From: Escherichia coli
GTDB taxonomy: Bacteria; Pseudomonadota; Gammaproteobacteria; Enterobacterales; Enterobacteriaceae
Assembly (NCBI RefSeq): GCF_048403405.1
Contig: NZ_CP183129.1
Direction: 5' to 3' (one strand)
Length of the DNA: 64,000 bases
Shown: positions 60,315-60,740 of the stretch, one piece after another
Layout: each line of letters begins with the position of its first letter
Position numbering within the stretch: position 1 is the stretch's first letter
Position numbers and translations under genes: made by a program
The notes under the pieces: model-generated
Database searches by the model: none
What the model was told of the DNA's origin: nothing
The model's input: only the letters and a program-made list of their open reading frames with translations

Positions 60315-60537
60315 AAAAGTCTCTGTGAATGTTTATTCAACTGATGTCTTTTAACCTAAACCACTTTCACGTTAGAAAGCAAGGGCTTTTTTATATATTT
60401 TATGGCAATGGATTTGTTTAATGAATGAGCGGGGAAAGGAGGGGGCCTGGAGTGACTACGTTAGAAAAGAAATCGTGAAAATATGTCTTTAAAACCCTCA
60501 AGAACATTGTGTTCTGTAACTAAAGTGGGCTTTGTTC

Positions 60538-60640
60538 CTGCCGGATGCGGCGTGAATGCCTTATCTGGTCTACAAATGTTGCGTAAATTCAATATATTGA
60601 TGTTTTTGTAGGACTGATAAGCGGAGCGCATCAGGCAATG
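60538..60640. repeat. Pair of inverted REP units (BIME-like) in the hisL-yeeZ intergenic region
   Basis: cctgccggatgcggcgtgaatgccttatctggtctac and gtaggactgataagcggagcgcatcaggcaatg. Confidence 0.6.
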
Positions 60641-60740
60641 GTATATTTGCTAACCGTTTCGATTTCATTCATAGAATGAATTGTCAGTTTTGATACGCTA
60701 GCGTAGCCTTATAGATCTTAGGTGTATCAGGAGATAACGG

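Follow-up and report, generated by a model that had tools for sequence, protein, structure and literature searches.

The intergenic spacer between hisL and yeeZ in the window, meaning the whole 64,000-nucleotide stretch of Escherichia coli DNA analyzed here (RefSeq assembly GCF_048403405.1, contig NZ_CP183129.1), is very probably the toxin-antitoxin (TA)-free allele of a site that has two alleles in Escherichia, where the state carrying a BIME is the older one, a yefM-yoeB cassette came later, and the two have been exchanged by recombination. The spacer measures 424 bp (60317-60740), in keeping with the ~426 bp given by a first-pass annotation of this DNA, and yeeY follows yeeZ in the window. 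The locus is organized as follows:

59219-60118, minus strand: hisG (ATP phosphoribosyltransferase), the first structural gene of the his operon, from the ORF and the annotation of a record matching at 100%.
60165-60288, minus strand: his operon leader/attenuator RNA (Rfam RF00514 His_leader, 131.6 bits, E = 5e-23).
60266-60316, minus strand: hisL leader peptide (MTRVQFKHHHHHHHPD), from sequence and annotation.
60317-60393, no strand: spacer portion on the his promoter side, which can be aligned in all Enterobacteriaceae genera of the multiple alignment (Citrobacter, Salmonella, Lelliottia, Klebsiella and Enterobacter).
60394-60452, no strand: left portion of the extra sequence specific to Escherichia, which the BIME allele shares with the yefM-yoeB allele of K-12.
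60453-60660, no strand: allele-specific segment of ~208 bp, in place of the ~650-bp yefM-yoeB cassette of K-12.
60661-60740, plus strand: yeeZ 5' flank with the ribosome-binding site region, present in both alleles.
60741-61565, plus strand: yeeZ (SDR-family putative epimerase), from ORF and annotation.

The Escherichia-specific stretch comprises ~267 bp in all, with the BIME-1 described below in its right two-thirds and the yeeZ 5' flank next to it. Its left part could not be aligned in non-Escherichia genera (60394-60452, multiple alignment), and positions 60394-60446 are 100% identical to K-12.

No YefM/YoeB signal is present in the spacer at the protein, DNA or profile level, which confirms the first-pass annotation in its claim that yefM-yoeB is missing from its usual site. 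When the K-12 proteins were searched against the whole window by tblastn, neither matched the spacer, the best matches elsewhere having E = 0.31 for YefM and E = 0.18 for YoeB; the translated search for a YefM/YoeB-like ORF that had been suggested for this spacer was thus empty. A nucleotide search with the 659-bp K-12 cassette likewise found no match in the spacer and no cassette remnant in the window, and Pfam gave no meaningful match for the six spacer ORFs. The yefM operator core TGTACA, of which K-12 has two copies upstream of yefM, has zero copies in 60317-60740. Rfam, read up to E = 1, returned only the His leader and low-scoring overlapping noise, all within 60162-60288. The longest ORFs touching the spacer have 58, 56 and 42 aa, in accordance with the earlier statement that it holds no ORF of 60 aa or more; the first (60698-60874, minus strand) extends into yeeZ, and the other two both cross the REPs. 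A consensus scan of the spacer for promoters and terminators yielded 2 promoter-like sites, against 1.7 expected from shuffles, and no terminators. A strong Shine-Dalgarno-like AAGGAGG occurs at 60436-60442, followed by GTG and a putative 8-codon ORF (MTTLEKKS; 60436-60477 including the AAGGAGG), which sits at the allele breakpoint and whose start codon is missing from the K-12 allele.

In K-12 (NC_000913.3) the gene order is yeeZ-yoeB-yefM-hisL and the spacer is 867 bp long, so the earlier statement that yefM-yoeB lies between hisL and yeeZ in that strain was correct. Pairwise alignment with this region gave identity to K-12 at 328/328 positions of the left flank (hisG through 60446) and at 76/77 positions of the right flank (60664-60740). 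Between the flanks the sequences are unrelated, with 217 bp here (60447-60663) and 659 bp in K-12 by the raw MAFFT breakpoints. These breakpoints were refined with E. albertii and MOD1-EC7003, both of which have CTAAGAG and GATTCATTC in common with K-12, leaving allele-specific parts of ~208 bp here (60453-60660) and ~650 bp in K-12. Because the flanks are near-identical and the inner segments unrelated, the difference at hisL-yeeZ is a replacement polymorphism and not a clean deletion: the alignment that the first-pass annotation had proposed reveals two alternative fillings of one slot. A test for a deletion scar agreed, in that the K-12 flanks are not joined directly but are separated by ~208 bp of K-12-unrelated sequence that is also found in other Escherichia species. 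No REP motif occurs in the K-12 spacer. At the left cassette junction of K-12 there is a palindrome with a perfect 9-bp stem, CTAAGAGGA-CTG-TCCTCTTAG (extracted locus 3865-3845), the first arm of which (CTAAGAG) is resident sequence that E. albertii and MOD1-EC7003 likewise have in their BIME alleles; the palindrome could be an integration footprint or could be due to chance.

The two inverted REP units that had been noticed in the spacer were typed against the y and z1 consensus sequences, and together with the sequence between them they resolve into three parts:

60539-60573, minus strand: y-type REP, with 32/35 matches to the y consensus, aligning with the y REP of the cmoB-torZ BIME.
60574-60607, no strand: L linker of BIME-1, 34 nt, whose core AATTCAAT-TATTG is common to the cmoB-torZ BIME.
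60608-60637, plus strand: z1-type REP, with 28/30 matches to the z1 consensus, supported by the inverted repeat and by alignment to the cmoB-torZ BIME.

An exact REP core, GCCGGATGCGGCG, begins at 60540, and the GTAG ends of the y and z1 REPs face each other across the linker, whose core AATTCAATATATTG also occurs in the cmoB-torZ copy. Over ~120 bp, the REP pair as a whole shares 81% identity with the BIME that other E. coli have between cmoB and torZ (E = 4e-16), which checks the typing independently. Two overlapping IHF-consensus-like sites lie in the linker, at 60587-60599 (plus strand) and 60590-60602 (minus strand), each agreeing with WATCAANNNNTTR at 12/13 positions. When folded as single-stranded DNA, 60530-60645 scored better than all 200 shuffles (z = -3.7). 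The spacer contains this one REP pair only and no tandem array, and the 86 bp (60453-60538) and 23 bp (60638-60660) beside it are unique to the locus. BIME-1 elements usually lie at the 3' ends of transcription units, a position that is customary and not strictly defining; the local element is extragenic, between the divergently transcribed hisL and yeeZ, and not at a transcription-unit 3' end. Judged by its architecture, the stretch 60539-60637 is one BIME-1, since its order of y REP, L linker and z1 REP matches the published definition, namely z1 and y REPs in single copy with a long conserved L linker and frequently an IHF site (Ton-Hoang et al. 2012, PMC3333891). The local element shares with BIME-1 (RIP/RIB) the inverse y and z1 REPs, the single copy and the long linker (34 nt, here with IHF-consensus-like sequence as a candidate binding site), and differs in its location between divergent genes and in having 2-3 consensus mismatches per REP. 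It encodes nothing and, if it behaves as other BIME-1 elements do, would be bound by IHF and fold into hairpins.

Both alleles are common in E. coli. Among 5426 complete genomes, the K-12 cassette was found in 4218 (78%), always on the chromosome and at no more than two places per genome, and a sensitive blastn search with the yefM-yoeB coding region still gave 4218. The full-length BIME segment was found in 1196 of the 5426 (22%; 1193 by a wider query), including O157:H7 genomes, in which it is ~96% identical to that of the window. These two counts add up to 5414 of 5426, so that any overlap between the sets can be very small only, and the BIME and cassette alleles are close to mutually exclusive in E. 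coli; from the same population counts, BIME-allele genomes evidently carry no yefM-yoeB DNA elsewhere. The first-pass annotation, which had treated the K-12 arrangement as the expected state, was misleading on this point, given that 22% of complete E. coli genomes, O157:H7 included, have the BIME allele. The presence of the cassette in O55:H7 and its absence from O157:H7 fit an exchange of alleles along with the O-antigen region.

Two genomes of the species stand apart. E. coli HH97 (NZ_CP116409.1, GCF_028201635.1) has a 649-bp hisL-yeeZ spacer (extracted locus 2325-2973), unique among the 5426 genomes, in which short K-12-like and window-like blocks alternate with many small indels, and which is ~77% identical to K-12 within the spacer, yefM included, with flanks near-identical to those of K-12. 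We considered this spacer as an evolutionary intermediate and rejected it, as it occurs in one of 5426 genomes and its block mosaic resembles a mixed-read consensus; it is probably an assembly blend of mixed reads and not a real intermediate. The soil isolate MEI4BO-21 (NZ_CM149565.1) has a compact 178-bp hisL-yeeZ spacer like that of other genera and lacks yeeY. Its stretch from hisG to yeeZ is 94.9% identical to Kluyvera georgiana (extracted locus 1568-3649) and looks like an import from another genus beside the O-antigen region.

To place the two alleles in a wider context, loci were collected by a YeeZ scan with one genome per species, yielding 80 loci, among which E. fergusonii is not represented. 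In ~75 non-Escherichia Enterobacteriaceae (genera including Citrobacter, Salmonella, Enterobacter, Klebsiella, Kluyvera, Raoultella and Lelliottia), the gap between hisG and yeeZ is 349-382 bp and contains neither YefM/YoeB nor a BIME. A gap of 620-622 bp with the same BIME segment was found in E. coli E69, E. albertii, Escherichia sp. E1V33 and MOD1-EC7003, the gap in the window being 622 bp. In these Escherichia genomes the BIME segment is 88-97% identical to that of the window, close to the 92-97% of hisG and yeeZ, as expected for vertical descent. E. whittamii is the only cassette carrier among the five Escherichia species-level genomes scanned, and has the cassette at the same site. Its YefM and YoeB proteins are 100% identical to those of K-12 (extracted locus 3416-3915), and its cassette DNA, at 96.7% identity to K-12, is more similar than its hisG and yeeZ (93-95%), so that the polymorphism either predates the separation of the species or has passed between them. 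Beyond this site, large plasmids from Salmonella, Citrobacter, E. marmotae and Enterobacter carry copies of cassette positions 87-654 (promoter/operator up to the yoeB stop codon) at 78-86% identity. These homologues match the published view, given in PMC5120126 (citing Ramisetty and Santhosh 2016), that E. coli TA modules are horizontally transferred as units of a promoter and two ORFs and reside in core intergenic regions.

A different TA module had been proposed for the asmA-yegH interval of the window, and this interval does hold an intact TA pair, with a Gp49 toxin and an HTH_37 antitoxin. The features are:

10694-12547, plus strand: asmA.
12600-13218, minus strand: intact TA pair, the toxin gene being upstream.
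12600-12908, minus strand: antitoxin of the HTH_37 family (Pfam).
12880-13218, minus strand: toxin of the Gp49/RelE superfamily, 112 aa (Pfam PF05973, Gp49, E = 1e-29; RelE/ParE family by NCBI).
13293-14942, minus strand: yegH.

This module is found in ~790-910 of the 5426 E. coli genomes, O157:H7 included, and the copy in the window is only ~95% identical to that of O157:H7. The O-antigen cluster of the window (38083-49028) is identical to that of SMS-3-5 and 78 other genomes. The hisL-yeeZ spacer, for its part, is 100% identical to that of the O1 strain FDAARGOS_497, yet the O-antigen clusters of the two differ, which indicates that strains differ in how they combine hisL-yeeZ allele with O-antigen type. 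In FDAARGOS_497 the asmA-yegH site carries an IS110-family insertion, and the toxin there is annotated as a pseudogene with an N-terminal truncation.

In the history that we favor, the BIME allele would be the older, never-occupied state in Escherichia, and an illegitimate replacement would subsequently have brought in the yefM-yoeB core from a plasmid-like source. In K-12-type genomes, ~208 bp including the whole BIME-1 would have given way to a ~650-bp cassette made up of the yefM promoter/operator, yefM and yoeB. Lineages would since have exchanged the two alleles, with the conserved flanks on the his and yeeZ sides serving homologous recombination, within the heavy recombination that affects the surroundings of the O-antigen locus. 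The occurrence of the BIME allele in E. albertii and three more Escherichia genomes, together with the plasmid relatives of the cassette, favors an empty over an excised site; of the earlier suggestion that the REP pair marks an empty or excised site, the first half is therefore favored over the second, and the REP pair is neither a scar nor an attachment site.

The direction of change, from BIME to cassette, is what we infer from these distributions. Because K-12 keeps the first ~59 bp of the Escherichia-specific stretch, each order needs two events, and strict event counting alone accommodates a cassette-first order as well. Such an order, with the cassette as the earlier allele in Escherichia and the BIME segment as a later replacement that spread by recombination, would also suit the cassette in E. 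whittamii and the high cassette diversity within E. coli (95-100%); we nevertheless regard it as improbable, since the BIME allele is present in 4/5 Escherichia species-level genomes, including E. albertii, at species-level divergence, the similarity of the plasmid homologues stops exactly at the yoeB stop codon, as is typical of an acquired module, and we know of no source from which 86 bp of unique sequence and a BIME-1 could have arrived as a single piece. It also seems unlikely that the BIME segment and the cassette are long-lived alternative occupants of a ~200-bp slot, maintained as a polymorphism across species of Escherichia, with the BIME itself serving as the entry point of the cassette. 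Under that reading the cassette would be the form of E. whittamii and most E. coli, and the BIME that of E. albertii, other clades and 22% of E. coli; entry would have proceeded by REP-targeted or hairpin-mediated illegitimate integration, and the K-12 palindrome would be the footprint of that event.

Loss from a K-12-like ancestor, with yefM-yoeB excised or deleted and the REP pair left as a scar, is very unlikely and largely refuted. The cassette is indeed present in 78% of E. coli, leaving the BIME allele in the minority, and REP/BIME elements are known hot spots of recombination and insertion (PMC3333891); a deletion, however, would join K-12 sequence to K-12 sequence, where ~208 bp of unrelated sequence is found instead, E. 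albertii and a further three species-level genomes of Escherichia carry the same ~208 bp at 88-97% identity, a REP motif that could have seeded a scar is missing from the K-12 spacer, and zero cassette remnant is left in the window. Least probable of all is that the site is not truly empty and contains an overlooked gene, small or decayed (an sRNA, for example, or a short antitoxin-like ORF), for despite the AAGGAGG with its GTG and 8-codon ORF and the resemblance of the HH97 spacer to an intermediate of both alleles, all spacer ORFs fall below 60 aa, Pfam on six of them and tblastn with YefM/YoeB were empty, Rfam at E up to 1 gave only the His leader and overlapping noise, promoter-like sites did not exceed the shuffle expectation, and HH97 is one of 5426 genomes and looks like an assembly blend.

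The significance of the locus is small beyond bookkeeping, and the site serves as a clean small example of a TA cassette replacing resident intergenic DNA, as opposed to simple insertion. K-12 is not the norm at hisL-yeeZ: about one in five complete E. coli genomes, O157:H7 included, is entirely without yefM-yoeB, and conclusions drawn from K-12 yefM-yoeB or from multi-toxin deletion strains are accordingly not transferable to such strains. As K-12 yeeZ is believed to share a transcript with yefM-yoeB (PMC5120126) and the region upstream of yeeZ differs by allele, the regulation of yeeZ may differ between the alleles.

Compared with the K-12 yefM-yoeB module (b2017/b4539), which is found in 78% of E. 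coli genomes, the window has the same chromosomal slot without the ORFs, the operator or any detectable DNA similarity. A comparable case is ccdO157 at folA-apaH, reportedly described by Mine and colleagues in 2009 as a type II module on the chromosome that some strains have and others lack at one fixed intergenic site of the core genome; module-less strains are said to have a short strain-specific sequence filling the site. The likeness lies in a strain-variable type II module with an alternative filler, and the difference in another module at another locus. More generally, type II modules are unevenly spread among E. coli, according to Fiedoruk 2015 and Ramisetty and Santhosh 2016, as cited in PMC7167474 and PMC5120126. 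The TA-free hisL-yeeZ allele with REPs is itself already known and is an ordinary strain polymorphism, because Iguchi et al. 2011 (PLoS One 6:e23250, PMC3158064) reported for the O157:H7 strain Sakai that the interval from yeeZ to hisL lacks yoeB/yefM and contains REPs. The window has the same locus in the same module-less state with REPs; it differs from Sakai in not being O157:H7, in having an O-antigen cluster as in SMS-3-5, and in its asmA-yegH module (~95% identical). The outgroup comparison and the BIME-1 typing come from the present analysis.
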